A model generated the notes under the pieces. The model saw nothing but the letters and a program-made list of their open reading frames with translations, was not told where the DNA came from and searched no databases. The position numbers and the translations under genes are program-made. A stretch of 64,000 bases of DNA from Dehalococcoidia bacterium (GTDB lineage: Bacteria; Chloroflexota; Dehalococcoidia; Lucifugimonadales; UBA1123): assembly GCA_965116415.1 (NCBI GenBank), contig OZ220693.1, positions 2,220,753 through 2,284,752 of the forward strand. The letters are read 5' to 3'. Below, piece after piece: positions 27,441 through 48,361 of the stretch (within the stretch, counting starts at the first letter, position 1; each line of letters starts with the position of its first letter).

Positions 27441-28895
27441 ATGGTTGGAGAACCCATCACAGTGATCGAGTTACAGAAGTCCGTCCCACTTAAGCTCCGT
27501 GAGCCAACGGTCGATTCCACGGACCCCTGGGCGGACGATCTCCTCACTCGACGGGACATTGCGGTACGGCTGACAAACCTGATTGCAGTTCAGGAGCCTC
27601 CCCTGACCGTCAGCATCCACGGACAATGGGGAACAGGCAAGACCTTCATGCTCACACGATGGCAGAAGGAACTAGAGAATCTAAACTTCAGGGCAGTCTA
27701 CTTCAATGCGTGGGAGGATGACTTTTGTGATGACCCACTACTCGCGATACTTGGGCAGATGTCTGAGTACTTCAAGGAAGATGATCTCAAGGCTTTAGCT
27801 CACCGCGTTATTCAGACTGCGATCCCACTAATACAAAAAAATGTGCTGGGTGTCCTATCAAAGACTACAGGGCTAACATTAAAACTTGAGGAAAGTCGGG
27901 AGGCTGAGCGAGATCTCTTCAGCGAGTATCTTGACCAAAGAGCAACAAAGGATTCACTGAGAGAGAGCCTAGAGGCAATGTCGGCAGCAGTGTTTCAGGA
28001 GACCGAACACCCCCTGGTCTTCATAATCGACGAGCTTGACAGGTGCCGTCCCACATTTGCTATCGAGCTTCTCGAGAGGGTAAAGCACATATTTGACGTC
28101 CCACACATTGTTTTTGTGCTTGGCCTCAACCGAGATGAGCTTGCCAAGTCATTGTCGTCAGTTTATGGAGACATCAACGCAGACGTTTATCTCAGACGCT
28201 TCTTTGATTTTGAATTCAACCTTCCAGAGGCTGACTCAAGAGCATTTGCCGCCCACCAAATAGCAAGACTCAATCTTCAGAGCGTCTTCCTAGGACTTTC
28301 CGAAGCTGCCAACAACGCAGTCCATGTACACGACTACGACAACTACCACATAGTCATCCCCGGCCTCTGGAGCGCCTTGGGCCTCTCCCTTAGAGACATT
28401 GACTACGGCATACGTCTGCTTGCCCTCCTTGCTCGGAATGTAAAGGTGGGCACCTTCACTCACCCATTCCTACTTGCCATCCTCATTGCGATGAAGTTCA
28501 AGAATCCAGATATCTATCACTCGCTGGTGACAGGAAACTTCCGAACTAGAGAGGTCATGGGTTATATCGAAGAACAATTGAGACGAGACTTGATTGATAG
28601 GGACCTGTCTGCCCACTTGGACAGGAGTGAAGGCTTCCTCTATTGCGCCGACAGTGCCAATGCCGCATCCCAGATGGTCGGTGAGACCGCCCTTGCTGAA
28701 TTAGAGGGAGTATTGGAGAGGTCTCCTAGCATGGACTTTTTGGTGATTTCTCAAAGAGCGCAGGATGCTGATCGACATCAGTTAGACAGAATCAGACAAG
28801 CGATCCTCGACGGATCCAATTTGAGCATAAGTCGGAGGGTGCTAGGCAACCTAGCTACTCTTATCGACACATATCAGACACAATTGAGACGTTAG
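27441..28895 (+). CDS. KAP-family P-loop NTPase
   Basis: 484 aa. Walker A is HGQWGTGKTFM, and Walker B with the KAP-typical Arg/Cys is FIIDELDRCRP. The gene is visibly more A+T-rich than its flanks. Confidence 0.8.
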   Translation: MVGEPITVIELQKSVPLKLREPTVDSTDPWADDLLTRRDIAVRLTNLIAVQEPPLTVSIHGQWGTGKTFMLTRWQKELENLNFRAVYFNAWEDDFCDDPLLAILGQMSEYFKEDDLKALAHRVIQTAIPLIQKNVLGVLSKTTGLTLKLEESREAERDLFSEYLDQRATKDSLRESLEAMSAAVFQETEHPLVFIIDELDRCRPTFAIELLERVKHIFDVPHIVFVLGLNRDELAKSLSSVYGDINADVYLRRFFDFEFNLPEADSRAFAAHQIARLNLQSVFLGLSEAANNAVHVHDYDNYHIVIPGLWSALGLSLRDIDYGIRLLALLARNVKVGTFTHPFLLAILIAMKFKNPDIYHSLVTGNFRTREVMGYIEEQLRRDLIDRDLSAHLDRSEGFLYCADSANAASQMVGETALAELEGVLERSPSMDFLVISQRAQDADRHQLDRIRQAILDGSNLSISRRVLGNLATLIDTYQTQLRR

Positions 28896-34695: not shown

Positions 34696-36501
34696 TTAGA
34701 CCTCTACCTCGACGGTAATGACATCGATGTCATGGAATTTCTGATGACGGACTGACGAGGCGTAGTGTCGAAGCAGTCTGAATGAGACCTCGTGCTCATC
34801 AAGAAGCTCGGGCTGCTCACTCAGGTAGACCATTCTGTCCTCGAGATTCTCAACGTCGTAGGCAGCTGACAGGAACTCCAGCTCAAGGATGGAATCGTCG
34901 GCCTGGAGGTTGATTATGAGTCTTCGCTCCTTGCCTGAGGGGTCTTCACTTTCGTACAGCGCCATGATTGCGAGGGTCTCCTCCCCCACAGCACGGATGC
35001 GGTTCGTCATCTGCTCGTCCCAGTTCCGACCCTCCGAATATCGTTGCATGAAACGATCAACTTCCGGAAAAGAGGCCACGTCCAAGTCGACCTCAAGCTT
35101 CTGCCGACGTGCTGAAGTCAGTTCGACGAATCCAATCATGAGGGCGGCAGCCAGGCCGCCTGAGGTTACGCTGTTGCTAAGAATCGCCTCCCATGTCCCC
35201 GACAGGAGTTCGGCGAAGATGGCCTGGTTCTGAAACCCCATGCCCACCCAGAAGGATACGGCGACAACCACGGCCTTCCGAGGGTTCATTCCATCCTGGG
35301 AAACAGTCTGGACACCCTCGATGAACACGAGCCCCATTACAACGAGGATGTAGGCAGCGGCAACCGGCGCGGGAATCGCGAGCAGGACTGCGGTGAATTT
35401 CGGCATGAACGCCAGTAGCACGAAGATAATTCCGGCACATACTCCGACACTTCGGGACGCCACTCCCGTGAGGCTGATTATCGCGACACTCGGTGAGGCT
35501 GTCATGGTGGGTATCGTCCCCGCGAGACCGGAAATCAGATTGCTCAGGCCATTTACGTTAAGGCCTCCCTGGACCAGCCTGAAGTCACTTGCGAGCGGCT
35601 GGCGGCGGGAGACACGCTGCACGGCCCCAACGTCGGCGACTGCCTTGAAGGAAGTGATAATCGTGATAACTACGAATGCCGGGAGAAGCGCCCAGAACTT
35701 GAGGCTAGGGGTGAAGTCCAGTCCCGGCCACGCATTTTCAGGCAAGCCCAACCAGGCCGAGTCCTGGACAATGCCGAACTCGTACAGTCCGAACGGCACT
35801 CCAACGGCGCATCCGAACACGATTCCAATCATCGGAGCCCATACCTGCAATGCCCTCCGCACTCTCAGCAGCATTAGCGCAACTACTGCCAGTGTCACGA
35901 TGGCCGCCAGAGGCGCAGCTATAGTCGAGGAGTCGTCCGGGACATCCGTCAGAGTCCTGAAGACGGCAAGAATCACAGTAGCCGCGATGAGCATGAGCAC
36001 CGTGCCTGAAACGACGGGAGTAATGATCCGCCGCAGCAGCGAAAGTCGAAACGCCACGGCAAACTTCACAATCGATGAAAGGACGATCAGGCTCGACATC
36101 ATCGCCGGCCCGCCTTCCATCAGGGCGGTGATGCAGATGGCAATCGCGGGTTCCGCCGTTCCGATGACCAGAACATGGCCAGTGCCCACCCTGCCCAATC
36201 GAAGTGACTGGAATATAGTGGCGGCTCCACAAATCACCAGAGATGCGAAAACCGCCCACGTGAGGTAGCTTTCCGGCTGGCCGGCGCTGCGCACTACGAT
36301 CACCACCGGCACAACCACCAGCGCGATCATGACGACGGCAAGCTGAAAGCCAGTTATCGAGGCTGTCAGAAGGGGACAGGACTCTTCGGGTTCAAAGTGG
36401 ATATTGCTGTTTATGCTGCCTGCTGCCAAGTGAATTCCTGCAAGTAGAGTGCATATTACCAGATGATGACACGCCAGACATTCCCTGGCTCCGCGATTCA
36501 C
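34696..36501 (-). CDS. NCS2/SLC23-like (nucleobase-cation symporter-2 type) permease with a cytoplasmic C-terminal extension of about 150 aa
   Basis: ...LTGVASRSVGVCAGIIFVLLAFMPKFTAVLLAIPAPVAAAYILVVMGLVF matches the NCS2 core from memory. The first ~24 codons of the track ORF lie in a non-coding tandem repeat, so in-frame TTG at 36429 is a more plausible start. Confidence 0.65.
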   Translation of the reverse strand: MNRGARECLACHHLVICTLLAGIHLAAGSINSNIHFEPEESCPLLTASITGFQLAVVMIALVVVPVVIVVRSAGQPESYLTWAVFASLVICGAATIFQSLRLGRVGTGHVLVIGTAEPAIAICITALMEGGPAMMSSLIVLSSIVKFAVAFRLSLLRRIITPVVSGTVLMLIAATVILAVFRTLTDVPDDSSTIAAPLAAIVTLAVVALMLLRVRRALQVWAPMIGIVFGCAVGVPFGLYEFGIVQDSAWLGLPENAWPGLDFTPSLKFWALLPAFVVITIITSFKAVADVGAVQRVSRRQPLASDFRLVQGGLNVNGLSNLISGLAGTIPTMTASPSVAIISLTGVASRSVGVCAGIIFVLLAFMPKFTAVLLAIPAPVAAAYILVVMGLVFIEGVQTVSQDGMNPRKAVVVAVSFWVGMGFQNQAIFAELLSGTWEAILSNSVTSGGLAAALMIGFVELTSARRQKLEVDLDVASFPEVDRFMQRYSEGRNWDEQMTNRIRAVGEETLAIMALYESEDPSGKERRLIINLQADDSILELEFLSAAYDVENLEDRMVYLSEQPELLDEHEVSFRLLRHYASSVRHQKFHDIDVITVEVEV

Positions 36502-36600
36502 AATTTAGGGGTCGCGCAAGTGAAGTGCATGTTACCAAGTGATGACACACCAGATATTCTCCGGTTCTGCCATTCCCATTTTGGGGTCGCGCAAGTAGTC
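36441..36600. repeat. Tandem direct repeat, two units of about 76 nt plus the first 7 nt of a third
   Basis: The caagt anchors lie at 36441, 36517 and 36592. Unit 1 is caagtagagtgcatattaccagatgatgacacgccagacattccctggctccgcgattcacaatttaggggtcgcg. Unit 2 is caagtgaagtgcatgttaccaagtgatgacacaccagatattctccggttctgccattcccattttggggtcgcg. Confidence 0.85.
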
Positions 36601-36740: not shown

Positions 36741-37352
36741 ATGACCACTAGAGTTTCAATTTTCCTCTTACTCGCACTTGGGATGACGGCGGCCCTTATT
36801 CTCGGCTGTGGATCAGCTTCAACCGAACAGGAAGCCGGCAGCGCGTCCGCGCCAAGCGCGCCACAGGCCGCCGCGGTCGTCGAGAGTCAGCCTCAAGCCG
36901 AGATAGTGGAAGTCGGTTACGAAGTGGGCCTTCGCGCTCCAGAGTTCGGCATGAGCCTGCTCGACGGCTCGAAGGTCACGTCCGCTGGGCTGGTCGAAGA
37001 GGGCAAGCCGGTATTCCTGTACTTCCACGCGACCTATTGACCGACCTGCCGCTCCGAGTTGCGGAGCCTGAACGACCAGGTCGGCACCGACTATGGTGAC
37101 AAGGTCGCTTTCTACATCGTTGGCACAAGCCCAAACGAGAGCGTCGAAGAACTCGACGCAGACCGGCAGAAGAAGGGTCTCCCCTGGCCCGTGGCCTACG
37201 CGGATGAGGGAATGCTGGCCTCGCTGAACATCAGGAGCCAGGCCTCGAAGATCGCCATCGGAAGCGACGGGACCATTCTCCACCGCGCCGGAGCGGGAAC
37301 GGCTGGCTTCGCCAGCTGGGCGGCACTGTTCGACGACATCGCCGCCAACTAG
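36741..37352 (+). CDS. TlpA/ResA-like thioredoxin-fold thiol:disulfide oxidoreductase lipoprotein; probable selenoprotein (Sec at codon 100, U-P-T-C active site)
   Basis: ORFs 36642..37040 and 37059..37352 share a frame and are separated only by TGA 37038..37040. Read-through gives GKPVFLYFHATY-U-PTCRSELRSLNDQ...GLPWPVAYADEG...IAIGSDGTILHRAGAG. The lipoprotein signal is MTTRVSIFLLLALGMTAALILGC. A stem-loop follows the TGA. Confidence 0.75.
37041..37084 (+). promoter_or_regulatory. SECIS-like stem-loop immediately 3' of the in-frame UGA
   Basis: Lower stem: ccgacctg (37041-48) pairs with caggtcgg (37077-84). Upper stem: gctccg (37051-56) pairs with cggagc (37062-67). The apical loop is aGUUg (37057-61) and begins 17 nt after the UGA. 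Confidence 0.65.
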
Positions 37353-37578: not shown

Positions 37579-38361
37579 ATGTATGCCCAGCCTGTCGTCA
37601 CCTTCAGGCGTTGTCAGGTCCACGGTCTTCTGCTCGATTATTCTGTAGTTTGGATTCTGCAAAATCCATTGACGGTGTCGGCCGCCAACAGCGAGGACTT
37701 TCCCTCGGCAGCTACATTGACCGAATGGTACACTACGGTACGTCCAGCGCGGGGAAATTCCGGAATTGAGGAGGCTCCAAGAGCTTTGCCCCTGTTCATC
37801 CCTTGGAACTCTGAGGGCTTCATACCCCCAATTGGATCAAGTGGTTCTACTTCACACGACAGGTCGCCTTATGTCATCTCATTAAGTGACCTGGTCCAAG
37901 ACTTTGGACACACCTCAACTCGCCAACGTCTACTCTCCGGGTTTCTGAGTTATAGAGCCATGCTGCACCAAGTGGGAATTACGAGGGGATTCCAATGGAT
38001 TAACGGCAGTTTCCTCGAGAACGTTGAAGAACGTGATAGCCGCGATCCCGAAGACATAGACGTGGTGACATTCTTTAGCCTTCCAAGTGGGTATACTGAA
38101 GAAACCCTACTCGACGCGGACCAATCTGCTTTTGATCCGACCTACATTAGATCCAGATACGAGGTTGATGCTTACTATGTAGTATTGAATGCTGAGCACA
38201 TGGACTACATCATAGAAAGTTCCACATATTGGTACAGTCTCTGGTCTCACACCCGTGATGGGCAATGGAAGGGCTATCTGCAAGTTGATCTGGCCAATGT
38301 TGAAGACGAGACTGCCCGGACTGAAATTGGTAAGGGCGTGGAGGAAGGGGGACAGCCGTGA
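37579..38361 (+). CDS. Minimal nucleotidyltransferase-fold protein (Pol-beta superfamily; tentatively DUF6932-like)
   Basis: The motif QWINGSFLENVEERDSRDPEDIDVVTF fits hG[GS]-x(9-14)-D-h-D. The N-terminal (M)PLFIPWNSEGFIPPIG...PYVISLSDLVQDFGHTSTRQRLLSGF resembles that family from memory. The probable real start is TTG 37786, preceded by GAGGAGG (192 aa). Confidence 0.6.
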   Translation: MYAQPVVTFRRCQVHGLLLDYSVVWILQNPLTVSAANSEDFPSAATLTEWYTTVRPARGNSGIEEAPRALPLFIPWNSEGFIPPIGSSGSTSHDRSPYVISLSDLVQDFGHTSTRQRLLSGFLSYRAMLHQVGITRGFQWINGSFLENVEERDSRDPEDIDVVTFFSLPSGYTEETLLDADQSAFDPTYIRSRYEVDAYYVVLNAEHMDYIIESSTYWYSLWSHTRDGQWKGYLQVDLANVEDETARTEIGKGVEEGGQP

Positions 38362-39245
38362 ACGCACACGAATTTCGCCTCCTGCTTTCGGAACGTGCAG
38401 CGTTAAGAGATCTTATTGATCGCGCTCCGCCCGGCAACGTAATTACAAAGATGAGCTTTGAGAACCGCCTACGACGGGTTGAGGAGCAACTCGAATCCTA
38501 TGAAGGCTACTCCCCTCATGTTGTCAACGCGCGTCTTACGTTCAGAGGGAAACCAGTTTTGGGCAGCCGTGCGGTCGACGCAGGATTTGGTCTGGACGCA
38601 GCGAAGGCATTCGTGGAGGCGGTTGCTAACGTCGGGCGTGCTTGGGGCGGTGGCGATTCGGATTTTAGGTTGCTAATTACCGGAACTACGCGGGGCTCTT
38701 TCGGATTCGAAGTTGAGGATGCCACTCAGACACCAGCTCTTGAGGGTGAATCAACACCAGTGGAGCGGGCGCTGGAACACGTCAGGGACATTCTGAAAGC
38801 CACCACCGGGACCGACGACCAGTTGGCTGATGCGATAGAAGACACCGACGATAGCACTCTCAGGGCGATACACCTGTTCCTCAAGACGGTTGCAGACGGC
38901 GATGCGATGTGCGCGCTGGAAATACAAGATGACAAGTTCAGTTTTCAGAGTGCTGACCAGGTCGAGCGAAGCGCAGGACGGCTGGACCAGAGAAACATCA
39001 GCATTGAAAACGTTGAACTGAGTGGACATCTCCAGGGAATCATGCCCAAGGGGCGAAGAGCGGAGTTTGTCGTGAAAGAGACGGGGGACGTGATTACCGC
39101 TAGGGTTCAGGCACCGGTGGCGGAATCGGTTCTCACCGCCGAGATGATTAACCAGCCTGCGAGAATCAGGGCTCGGACCCGGCGAGTGGGCAACAGCAGG
39201 CCAACTTACATTATTACCGATTTCGATTCGGATTCTACCTCGTAG
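38358..39245 (+). CDS. Hypothetical protein (295 aa), translationally coupled to the upstream nucleotidyltransferase gene
   Basis: The GTG start overlaps the upstream stop (GTGA). Composition is coding-like and I recognise no family. It shares the lower-G+C islet with the upstream gene. Confidence 0.55.
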   Translation: MNAHEFRLLLSERAALRDLIDRAPPGNVITKMSFENRLRRVEEQLESYEGYSPHVVNARLTFRGKPVLGSRAVDAGFGLDAAKAFVEAVANVGRAWGGGDSDFRLLITGTTRGSFGFEVEDATQTPALEGESTPVERALEHVRDILKATTGTDDQLADAIEDTDDSTLRAIHLFLKTVADGDAMCALEIQDDKFSFQSADQVERSAGRLDQRNISIENVELSGHLQGIMPKGRRAEFVVKETGDVITARVQAPVAESVLTAEMINQPARIRARTRRVGNSRPTYIITDFDSDSTS

Positions 39246-39347: not shown

Positions 39348-39566
39348 CTATAGGCTCATCCCCGGCCTTTCGACAGCATCTCTCATCATATCCACCACAT
39401 CTTCCCTTTGCCTGTCGGCCTGCGCAGTTGCATCTGCGCCAGGACGACTGTTCGACAAGACAGTTTCAGAGCGACCACGCCTACGCCGCACGATTATGAA
39501 TATCAACCCGCCCCAGATAAGCGCAAACACGCAGATCATGAGCGACAGTTCCAGAAGCATTCTCAC
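39348..39566 (-). CDS. Small single-pass membrane protein (hypothetical)
   Basis: 72 aa. The hydrophobic segment LSLMICVFALIWGGLIFIIV is followed by RRRRGR. No homology was recognised. Confidence 0.3.
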   Translation of the reverse strand: MRMLLELSLMICVFALIWGGLIFIIVRRRRGRSETVLSNSRPGADATAQADRQREDVVDMMRDAVERPGMSL

Positions 39567-46147: not shown

Positions 46148-46408
46148 ATGAGCAGGGTTTGGCAAGTTCAAGAAGCCAAGGCGCGATTTAGTGAGATGCT
46201 TGAGACGAGCCTCACGGAAGGGCCTCAGATTGTAACCAAGCGAGGTGTCGAGGCCGCCGTGTTAGTACCAATCGAGCAGTGGCGCCAAATGGAGAGGATG
46301 GCGAAGCCGAGTTTGAAGGACCTGTTACTTGCGCCGGAGGCTCGCACTGAGTCACTGACACCCCCTCGCAGAGAGCTTCCCAGGCGCGCTGTACCGCGCT
46401 TCGAGTAG
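46148..46408 (+). CDS. Phd/YefM-family antitoxin
   Basis: MSRVWQVQEAKARFSEMLETSLTEGPQIVTKRGVEAAVLVPIEQW. It is followed 5 nt later by a PIN toxin gene. Confidence 0.8.
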   Translation: MSRVWQVQEAKARFSEMLETSLTEGPQIVTKRGVEAAVLVPIEQWRQMERMAKPSLKDLLLAPEARTESLTPPRRELPRRAVPRFE

Positions 46409-46413
46409 GACTC

Positions 46414-46833
46414 GTGTACCTTCTCGACACCAACGTCGTTTCGGAGCTACGCCGCTCCAATCCACATCCATCGGTTCTTGATTGGATTCAACACACTCCC
46501 ACCGAGCATCTCTACCTATCAGCTGTCACCATAGGCGAGATTCAAGCAGGGATCGAAATCACACGGGAACAGGACGCAGCCAAGGCCGGAGAATTGGAAG
46601 CCTGGTTGGACCGGGTACTCAACAGCTACAGCATACTAGCCGTGGATTCAATAGCGTTTAGAGAGTGGGCCAAGCTGATGCACCATCAATCTCCCACCCT
46701 TACACAGGACGCTATGATCGCTGCAGTTGCCACAGTCCACAGGCTGATCGTGGTTACCAGGAACGTGCGTGACTTCGACAGGCTCGGCGTGCAGGTACTC
46801 AATCCGTTCGCCGGTCAAAATAGGAGTTCGTGA
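46414..46833 (+). CDS. vapC: PIN-domain toxin VapC (FitB-like)
   Basis: 139 aa with a GTG start. (V)YLLDTNVVSELRR...LSAVTIGEIQAGI...DAMIAAVATVHRLIVVTRNVRDF. Confidence 0.85.
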   Translation: MYLLDTNVVSELRRSNPHPSVLDWIQHTPTEHLYLSAVTIGEIQAGIEITREQDAAKAGELEAWLDRVLNSYSILAVDSIAFREWAKLMHHQSPTLTQDAMIAAVATVHRLIVVTRNVRDFDRLGVQVLNPFAGQNRSS

Positions 46834-47818: not shown

Positions 47819-48361
47819 ATGGTCACGACACCAAAGCTGACCTACCAGGACTATGCCAACCTCGAGGGTGACGAACGTTATGAACTCCTCGACGGAGAGT
47901 TGATTTTGGTTGCAGCGCCCAACGAGGACCATCAGACCGTCAGCCTGCGGATGATAGTGCGGATGAACAGTTTCGTGGAGGAGCGCCACTTGGGCCGCAT
48001 CTTTCACGCCCCATACGATGTTCTGTTCAGCGACACCGAGGTCGTGCAGCCTGATCTGCTGTTCGTCTCGACGGAGAGGGACCATATAAGGACACCAGCC
48101 AACATCCAGGGAGCGCCCGACCTGATCGTCGAGATTCTGTCGCCTTCGTCGTCACGGCGTGACTGGCGTGATAAGCGTGAGCTGTATGCAAGGCATGGCG
48201 TGCTGGAGTACTGGATAATCGACCCGACGAACAGGTTAGTGTCGGTCATGCAACTTCAGGACGGTGTCCTGGAGATCGAACAGACCTGCGCAGAGGGCGA
48301 CGTGGCAACGTCCACGGTCTTGGATGGCTTTGGGGTCAGCCTGGACGAGATCTTTTCGTAG
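47819..48361 (+). CDS. Uma2-family (DUF820) restriction-endonuclease-fold protein
   Basis: 180 aa. ...YELLDGELILVAAPNEDHQ...VVQPDLLFVS...APDLIVEILSPSS...DKRELYARHGVLEYWIIDP. Confidence 0.85.
   Translation: MVTTPKLTYQDYANLEGDERYELLDGELILVAAPNEDHQTVSLRMIVRMNSFVEERHLGRIFHAPYDVLFSDTEVVQPDLLFVSTERDHIRTPANIQGAPDLIVEILSPSSSRRDWRDKRELYARHGVLEYWIIDPTNRLVSVMQLQDGVLEIEQTCAEGDVATSTVLDGFGVSLDEIFS

Follow-up and report, generated by a model that had tools for sequence, protein, structure and literature searches.

The 64,000-nucleotide (nt) stretch of Dehalococcoidia bacterium contig OZ220693.1 analysed here (positions 2,220,753 to 2,284,752, assembly GCA_965116415.1; hereafter the window) carries two overlapping genes. 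The first (gene 1) encodes a minimal nucleotidyltransferase (NTase) of family DUF6932, and the second (gene 2) a 295-amino-acid (aa) partner without a named family, whose structural model ends in an oligonucleotide-binding (OB) fold. Surveys of related loci showed that the pair behaves as an accessory, mobile unit, associated with lysogen slots and with restriction–modification (R-M) systems. We conclude that it is very probably a two-gene conflict module, of an anti-phage, abortive-infection or toxin–antitoxin (TA)-like kind, because the two genes are so consistently paired, because R-M, BREX and ParE genes occur beside them, and because they occupy a repressor-adjacent slot in prophages. A first-pass annotation, made from the sequence of the window, had proposed an uncharacterised TA- or defence-like module at this place, and the near-obligate pairing and the defence and prophage contexts described below support that proposal.

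The pairing is near-obligate and reciprocal, and the two proteins co-evolve. A set of 124 loci was assembled with gene 2 as the seed (80 genomic, 39 viral and 5 by exact look-up), and a DUF6932 open reading frame (ORF) was found directly upstream on the same strand in 121 of them, in most cases overlapping gene 2; overlaps of 4 nt were the most frequent junction (44 loci), followed by those of 14 nt (26 loci). Seeding with gene 1 yielded 80 viral contigs, from which 78 loci were evaluated (45 clusters at 90% identity), and the partner was directly downstream in 78/78. The same arrangement was observed in 79/79 evaluable metagenomic gene-1-seeded loci, the 80th ending at a contig edge, so that the partner accompanied gene 1 in 157/157 evaluable viral and metagenomic loci. 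Across 107 loci the pairwise identities of the two proteins were correlated (r = 0.85), with the NTase the more conserved of the two in 83% of pairwise comparisons. The pair thus forms the tightly linked, co-inherited two-gene operon that is a generic mark of TA systems. The first-pass annotation had staked its proposal on the two genes being conserved as neighbours in other genomes, and they are, in many phyla, in archaea and in prophages.

Genomic settings of the pair

By record titles, the bacterial hosts of the family include Dehalococcoidia, Planctomycetota, several proteobacterial orders, Acidobacteriota, Latescibacterota, Cloacimonadota, Spirochaetia and Bacteroidales, and the archaeal hosts are the methanogens Methanoculleus, Methanothrix and Methanocalculus. 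Two separate copies of the pair can share one Dehalococcoidia genome or metagenome-assembled genome (MAG), as for loci L022 and L024 (OY762634.1) and loci L016 and L017 (CBDCQN01). At two further loci, extra gene-2-like N-terminal fragments lie upstream of intact pairs (6658-7197 of L023 and 5590-5907 of L045); they appear to be relics of older copies, which suggests that the site has seen turnover.

IMG/VR contigs and PHROGs supplied the viral evidence, the family being present on 39 gene-2-seeded and 80 gene-1-seeded viral contigs; a tblastn search of both proteins against INPHARED phage records gave no match. An S24 (cI/LexA-type) repressor was found within three genes of the pair in 8/14 dereplicated viral loci, and at prophage loci the pair lies in the immunity region, where it is the next thing downstream of the cI/LexA-type repressor. 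One viral locus matches, at 100% identity, a prophage that 8 of 5,426 complete Escherichia coli genomes carry. In E. coli CE10, cro points leftwards and is followed by rightward cI, the DUF6932 gene and a gene for a 309-aa hypothetical protein, in that order; the E. coli homologues are 38% (gene 1) and 29% (gene 2) identical to the window proteins. The accessions of the CE10 pair are WP_024201976.1 and WP_001081279.1. In phage lambda, rexAB lies immediately downstream of cI on the same strand, in the order cI-rexA-rexB. The CE10 pair occupies the same slot in the same orientation, although its proteins are unrelated to RexA and RexB and include no membrane component. This placement implies that the pair is expressed in the lysogen.

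Genomic neighbours were surveyed qualitatively, on 140 flanking proteins drawn from 35 diverse genomic loci. The families that recurred most often were N6_Mtase, Eco57I methylases, type I restriction subunits (HsdR), Uma2, ParE and IS110, and PADLOC labelled the same neighbours as type I and type II methyltransferases, PglX-like, type IIG and DrmMI. R-M, BREX-like or ParE genes lie beside the pair in roughly a fifth of the diverse genomic loci, the other neighbours being miscellaneous metabolic genes. On this qualitative assessment the family has the neighbourhood of defence genes and prophage slots that is generic to defence systems. In Marinobacter zhejiangensis (L001, 4424-7544) a type I R-M operon carries the pair as an insertion between its hsdS and hsdR genes, together with a Phd/YafO TA pair and a DUF6933 gene; DUF6933 did not recur among the neighbours seen at other loci.

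The copy in the window comprises the following features.

37786..38361, + strand: gene 1, DUF6932 minimal nucleotidyltransferase, 191 aa, TTG start
37579..38361, + strand: longer open frame of gene 1, from ATG 37579, an ORF reading
37768..37774, + strand: GAGGAGG, Shine-Dalgarno-like, 11 nt 5' of the gene 1 TTG, read from the sequence
38340..38361, + strand: coupling junction, a GGAGGA Shine-Dalgarno sequence in the last gene 1 codons, then the GTGA start/stop overlap
38358..39245, + strand: gene 2, 295-aa partner without a named family, GTG start

Both ORFs, the GTGA junction and the coordinates agree with the overlapping pair that the first-pass annotation had described, the gene 2 GTG (38358-38360) overlapping the gene 1 TGA (38359-38361). 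The start of gene 1 is almost certainly TTG 37786, as had been suggested from the GAGGAGG ahead of it, because this sequence stands 11 nt upstream, because homologues are ~193 aa long, and because the public (ENA) gene call on the identical contig starts gene 1 at the same TTG and gives 191 aa.

The G+C content of gene 1 is 0.491, at the 0.7th percentile of same-length intervals, and that of gene 2 is 0.554, at the 9th percentile, compared with a window mean of 0.605. G+C at third codon positions is 0.51 for gene 1 and 0.58 for gene 2, as against 0.75-0.80 in the flanking genes. The dip that had been noticed by eye is therefore real, beyond chance for gene 1 and moderate for gene 2. The flanks were searched for an integrase, a tRNA and flanking direct repeats, and none was found, in keeping with the earlier description of housekeeping-type flanks without an integrase. 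No insertion scar is visible, the closest relative being collinear across the pair. An Rfam scan of the window gave no match, and a scan for promoters and terminators gave nothing informative. Since a relative at ~88% nucleotide identity is collinear through the pair and carries it at the same place, the islet, though compositionally foreign, is an old resident of this genome and not a recent arrival. Comparison with the closest relative (L006) indicated purifying selection on both genes, with ratios of nonsynonymous to synonymous substitution (dN/dS) of 0.16 for gene 1 and 0.19 for gene 2.

Such stable inheritance under purifying selection, together with the housekeeping genes that flank the pair in the window and also in several other Dehalococcoidia, would suit a role outside conflict altogether. 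The pair might then serve phage or cell nucleic-acid metabolism, for example as a 3'-end tailing or repair enzyme with a subunit binding single-stranded DNA or RNA, or as an accessory of lysogeny or replication, and the one knockout of a related candidate system, PDC-M63AB, which had no defence phenotype (see below), fits this view. We nevertheless regard it as very improbable. The pair is spread patchily over bacteria and archaea, is present in multiple copies in some genomes alongside remnants of older ones, has been inserted in R-M operons, takes a repressor-adjacent prophage slot used for exclusion genes, is atypical in G+C, and is held by only 8 of the 5,426 E. coli genomes. These features argue for accessory conflict genes rather than core metabolism.

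The two predicted proteins

Gene 1 matched Pfam DUF6932 (PF22014) with E = 5.6e-31 and 108.3 bits against a 27-bit cut-off, over model positions 2-142 of 142. This was the only Pfam family to match at E ≤ 1, and it confirms an assignment that had been offered tentatively. PGAP names the E. coli homologue 'DUF6932 family protein', phrog_9194 was matched at 4e-37, and a literature search found no paper mentioning DUF6932. The catalytic and family-specific elements are listed below.

38005..38061, + strand: Pol-beta NTase catalytic motif, G74-S75 … D90-x-D92, from residue invariance and model topology
38167..38169, + strand: third catalytic carboxylate, D128, Asp in 211/213 homologues, on strand 127-133 of the model
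38227..38277, + strand: family-specific C-terminal motif YWYSLWSHTRDGQWKGY, residues 148-164, with Y148, H155, W161 and G163 in at least 211/213 homologues

The NTase signature reads INGSF-LENVEERDSRDPE-DIDVV; the first-pass annotation had recognised it correctly but counted 14 residues in the spacer, which has 13. G74, S75, D90 and D92 are kept in 213/213 distinct homologues. Because these four residues are invariant and D128 is Asp in 211/213, gene 1 is predicted to be catalytically intact, with catalysis under selection. The C-terminal motif follows the family pattern YWYSLWSHxRxGxWKGY, and a second conserved element of the family is the N-terminal segment IPxWN..G.LPP…RSPY. The AlphaFold model of gene 1, with a predicted local distance difference test score (pLDDT) of 87.7, shows a strand-GS-helix-strand(DxD) core with the third Asp on a later strand, and the protein thus combines the hG[GS], short spacer, DxD on adjacent strands and third carboxylate by which the Pol-beta superfamily is recognised.

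The first-pass annotation had recommended structure searches with models of both proteins. A Foldseek-type fold comparison of the gene 1 model with the PDB placed it nearest to 2rff, a minimal NTase (E = 2.8e-3, probability 0.97, template-modelling (TM) score 0.41 on the target), with no match at or below 1e-3; weaker matches included CdnC (E = 0.15), TENT5C and the CCA-adding enzyme. The family is acidic, with a median isoelectric point (pI) of 4.9. Matches of the gene 1 profile to designer PPR proteins were dismissed as repeat artefacts.

Gene 2, whether searched as a single sequence or as a 66-sequence profile, gave no Pfam, NCBIfam, PADLOC or PDB sequence match. It was therefore left, as in the first-pass annotation, without a recognised family, and no known metabolic or structural family, which would have told against the original proposal, was matched. 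Its match to phrog_18731 (7.7e-46) is to a group with no function assigned. The size of the family was estimated by a profile search over 1.84 billion representative proteins, counted as clusters at 50% identity, which revealed 1,870 clusters at E ≤ 1e-3 and 631 at E ≤ 1e-30, nearly all of ~300 aa and matching the profile end to end. Weak SnoaL matches (10 members, best E = 0.0018) and scattered others fell far below the cut-offs and were not credible.

The AlphaFold model of gene 2 (pLDDT 88.5, predicted TM score 0.76) has the following parts.

38364..38498, + strand: N-terminal antiparallel helical hairpin, residues 3-47, from DSSP of the model
38526..38981, + strand: middle alpha/beta and helical region, residues 57-208, from the model, with no convincing fold match
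38694..38708, + strand: GSFGF loop, G113-F117, with S114 invariant
38985..39230, + strand: C-terminal OB-fold, residues ~210-291, from Foldseek on the model

Structure searches identified the C-terminal domain as an OB-fold with a Foldseek probability of ~1.0, the matches being the OB domains of SSB/Rim1, RPA, Stn1, Teb1, ExoVII-N and the LysRS anticodon-binding domain; further matches were a viral SSB and the CspC and eIF5A-C domains. The middle region appears novel. Over its full length, the model found structural relatives in three uncharacterised phage proteins (E = 9e-13 to 6e-9), one of them from Leptospira phage LE1. A likeness to release factor 1 was not used, because its E value of 1.7e-3 went with a TM score of 0.17 and a root-mean-square deviation of 18 Å. 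In some relatives a TPR-like helical domain of ~100 aa stands in place of the N-terminal hairpin, and these variants give no enzymatic clue.

Conservation in gene 2 centres on G64, F77, S114 and G116, which are present in 200/200 distinct homologues, and T108, present in 199/200. The GSFGF loop containing S114 may be a candidate site of nucleotidylylation. No transmembrane (TM) segment was detected, and no conserved HEPN motif Rx4-6H is present in the window protein or in any column of the family alignment. A HEPN identity was accordingly rejected, the model being alpha/beta with an OB-fold and not all-alpha. No helix-turn-helix (HTH) family matched gene 2 in Pfam and profile scans. On both points, HEPN and HTH, the first-pass annotation had reached the same view.

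Several relatives depart from this architecture at the C-terminus. Apparent domain swaps, in which homology ends near residue 220, were left out of account, since they are mostly frameshifted or truncated products. In L228 (3037-3940) homology likewise ends near residue 220, and the C-terminus consists of two hydrophobic TM-like helices with no OB-fold; this is a single case, which could be a real swap or a rearrangement. In L265 (3482-4858) a truncated gene 2 precedes a mini-ORF in which the N-terminal hairpin runs straight into the OB-fold.

Natural losses, mechanism and relation to known systems

Loss of one partner was found in both directions. Gene 1 is deleted in three loci, L027 (C-terminal remnant only), L049 and L053 (absent), an internal deletion in L049 having fused the first ~35 gene 1 codons to gene 2; in all three, gene 2 is intact and keeps all its invariant residues. 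In four others (L013, L029, L030 and L039) a frameshift divides gene 1 into two ORFs beside an intact gene 2, and these may be real pseudogenes or MAG assembly errors. The mirror case, in which gene 2 is broken and gene 1 intact, was seen at 2-3 of 137 loci. An initial impression that the NTase never stands alone was weakened accordingly, the apparent 0/157 becoming 2-3/137 with a broken partner, and the asymmetry is not significant. The trend, not a significant one, suggests that harm comes from the NTase and that the partner restrains it. More clearly, the seven partner-only loci speak against the partner being a constitutive toxin or a guard-released effector.

The mechanism that we tentatively favour is one in which the two proteins, made together, would form a complex and the partner would restrain the enzyme. 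The OB-fold and the variable N-terminal helical module of the partner would act as the sensor of a phage cue, for which single-stranded DNA, RNA or a nucleic-acid-binding phage protein are candidates. On infection the NTase would be released and would add nucleotides to an essential target, possibly the 3' end of a tRNA or of another nucleic acid, or a protein, and this modification would stop the growth of the infected cell. The direction of this scheme, in which toxicity would reside in the NTase and the OB-fold partner would be both restrainer and sensor, is doubtful when judged by itself. In its favour, gene 1 is lost or frameshifted with gene 2 intact in 7 loci, compared with 2-3/137 for the mirror case, and the slightly greater conservation of the NTase, usual for toxins and effectors, suggests the same. 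The compound reading, a mobile, obligate conflict module with a toxic NTase and a partner that restrains or senses, is offered tentatively, as somewhat more likely to prove wrong than right.

Several observations weigh against this reading. The difference in losses, 7/124 against 2-3/137, is not significant (Fisher p = 0.09-0.2), and faulty assembly may account for some of the gene 1 frameshifts. The NTase has an acidic median pI of 4.9, an unusual property in an enzyme binding tRNA or DNA by itself. Its place as first gene and its best structural match, of the minimal nucleotidyltransferase (MNT) type, resemble HepT/MntA, a system whose NTase acts as the antidote. Housekeeping genes flank the pair in this Dehalococcoidia genome, and it is syntenic in the relative. 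Finally, a knockout of the related PDC-M63AB in its native host, E. coli NILS69, challenged with 10 virulent phages, caused no change in infectivity (bioRxiv 10.1101/2024.12.20.629700).

The resemblance to HepT/MntA, the type VII TA system, raises the alternative that the NTase is an antidote which nucleotidylylates a toxic, nucleic-acid-binding partner, for example at Ser114 or Thr108, keeping it off until the modification lapses. The gene order is that of mntA-hepT, with the small Pol-beta NTase encoded first and the partner overlapping it; the solved structure closest to gene 1 is the MNT-type 2rff; the NTase is acidic, as are protein-modifying MNTs; and an enzymatic relation between the two proteins is plausible. 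The Ser that is invariant in the partner (200/200) lies in an exposed, Gly-rich hairpin, and the partner also has a near-invariant Thr, so that S114 and T108 are candidate acceptor residues, judged from conservation, for a modification of the HepT/MntA kind. The partner, however, is not HEPN, lacks a conserved Rx4-6H and is built on an alpha/beta and OB architecture; no nuclease or other toxic motif is recognisable in it; and gene 1 matches DUF6932 and not the NTP_transf_2 or Polbeta Pfam models. Loci with the partner alone also exist for this pair, the NTase being lost or broken beside an intact partner in 7/124, which is unexpected if the partner is constitutively toxic. We therefore consider an antidote role for the NTase unlikely.

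In Hailong, an NTase makes a nucleotide or oligonucleotide signal that acts through an effector. By the same logic, shared with CBASS, the product of the window NTase, a nucleotide or a short template-independent oligonucleotide, would be bound by the OB-fold and would switch the partner on or, in a guard version, off. An OB-fold is by definition an oligonucleotide binder and would suit a signal receptor, and CdnC, TENT5C and the CCA-adding enzyme are among the weaker fold matches of gene 1. CBASS and Hailong likewise consist of an NTase with one partner in defence islands and prophages, and the genomic contexts of the present pair are those of defence systems. Losses occur in both directions, and neither gene seems strictly needed for tolerance of the other. 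Gene 1, on the other hand, matches no CD-NTase (SMODS) model in Pfam or PADLOC, nor any other signalling-NTase model, and an enzyme of only 191 aa offers little room for a two-nucleotide pocket. The partner has neither a TM segment nor a recognisable effector domain, and the guard version conflicts with the intact partners that lack an NTase. Signalling of this kind is in our estimation improbable.

The scheme of a toxic NTase held in check by its partner follows the same logic as MenAT/AbiE, whose DUF1814 NTase toxins also form two-gene TA or abortive-infection modules with 4-nt overlaps and partners of up to ~300 aa. Gene 1 differs from these toxins in having no DUF1814/AbiEii match and in being much smaller, and no AbiE was found among the PADLOC matches. 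The gene order is reversed, the NTase being upstream in 121/124 loci, and the partner has no winged HTH and is unrelated to AbiEi or MenA. Membership of HepT/MntA, MenAT/AbiE and CBASS thus fails on defining features.

The closest relation found is to PDC-M63AB, an unvalidated computational 'phage defence candidate' of PADLOC, which is likewise a two-gene module, has an A protein of the same NTase family and is prophage-borne in E. coli. Gene 1 matched the PDC-M63A models PDLC04744 (6.6e-14) and PDLC04745 (0.006). The M63A model aligns only to residues 36-169 of gene 1, the conserved N-terminal ~35 residues being extra. The window gene 2 had no PADLOC match at E ≤ 1, and its E. coli CE10 homologue had no M63B match, so that PADLOC v2 would not call this branch. 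Within the 66-protein gene 2 alignment, which includes the window protein, 7, 5 and 2 members weakly matched three M63B models (best E 3e-4), and 9/66 matched PDC-M32A, an uncharacterised prophage candidate. Because these weak matches fall, among 5,027 models, on the cognate partner of M63A, coincidence is unlikely, and we read the pair as a putative distant sister branch of PDC-M63AB that current models do not detect, a matter of remote homology and not of membership. The first-pass annotation's statement that no described system pairs these two proteins must consequently be qualified, PDC-M63AB having an A protein of this NTase family and B models that weakly match some relatives of gene 2. 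In a literature search, the NILS69 knockout was the sole experiment found on PDC-M63AB, PDC-M63 and PDC-M32 otherwise appearing only as PADLOC calls.

A broader proposition is that the pair is the first example of a mechanistically new class of NTase-based immunity or TA system, separate from HepT/MntA, MenAT/AbiE, CBASS and Hailong. Here the DUF6932 NTase would nucleotidylylate the Ser114 loop of the OB-fold partner or make an oligonucleotide read by the OB-fold, the same module operating in bacteria, in archaea and, as an exclusion system in the rexAB slot, in lambdoid prophages. We hold this to be possible, at less than an even chance.

Window neighbours and significance

Other features of the window were recorded alongside the pair. 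Just downstream of gene 2, on the opposite strand, a 72-aa ORF at 39348-39566 (−) contains one strongly hydrophobic segment. Within 10 kb of the pair lie a Phd/YefM-PIN TA pair, a Uma2 putative restriction endonuclease, a DUF5677 gene, and a KAP NTPase followed by DUF433; nearby conflict-type genes occupy window positions ~46148-46833, ~47819-48361 and 27441-28895 (converted from L005).

Upstream, the 'redoxin' at 36741-37352 (+) is a thioredoxin-fold lipoprotein with an in-frame TGA at 37038-37040, which falls precisely where the CxxC motif has its first Cys (FHATY-TGA-PTC). Both the TGA and the protein sequence flanking it are kept in L006, and a stem-loop starts ~11 nt downstream; the TGA looks like a candidate selenocysteine codon and not the mark of a pseudogene. 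The public gene call misses this gene and calls a minus-strand ORF there. Upstream of the candidate selenoprotein gene, the intergenic interval 36440-36586 holds a tandem direct repeat of ~75 nt, in two copies 79% identical, which is partly conserved in L006.

The pair is not categorically new, since its NTase family is already catalogued (DUF6932, PDC-M63A) and its architecture belongs to the known class of two-gene NTase conflict systems. The partner family is widespread and structurally distinctive, with its OB-fold and novel middle domain, and is missed by current defence annotation. This amounts to an annotation gap, the partner having no Pfam or NCBIfam model and the PADLOC B models failing on this branch. 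Should the pair prove to function in defence or as a TA module, it would add a widespread NTase system, with at least 1,870 partner clusters at 50% identity in bacteria, archaea and phages, and the combination of an NTase with an OB-fold partner of no named family would be without characterised precedent. The E. coli CE10 prophage homologue, in the rexAB slot, makes the mechanism directly testable in a standard host, and the pair is relevant to the question of which genes temperate phages express from their immunity region. In the Dehalococcoidia genome, it would represent one more accessory conflict module beside the Phd/PIN, Uma2 and KAP NTPase genes.

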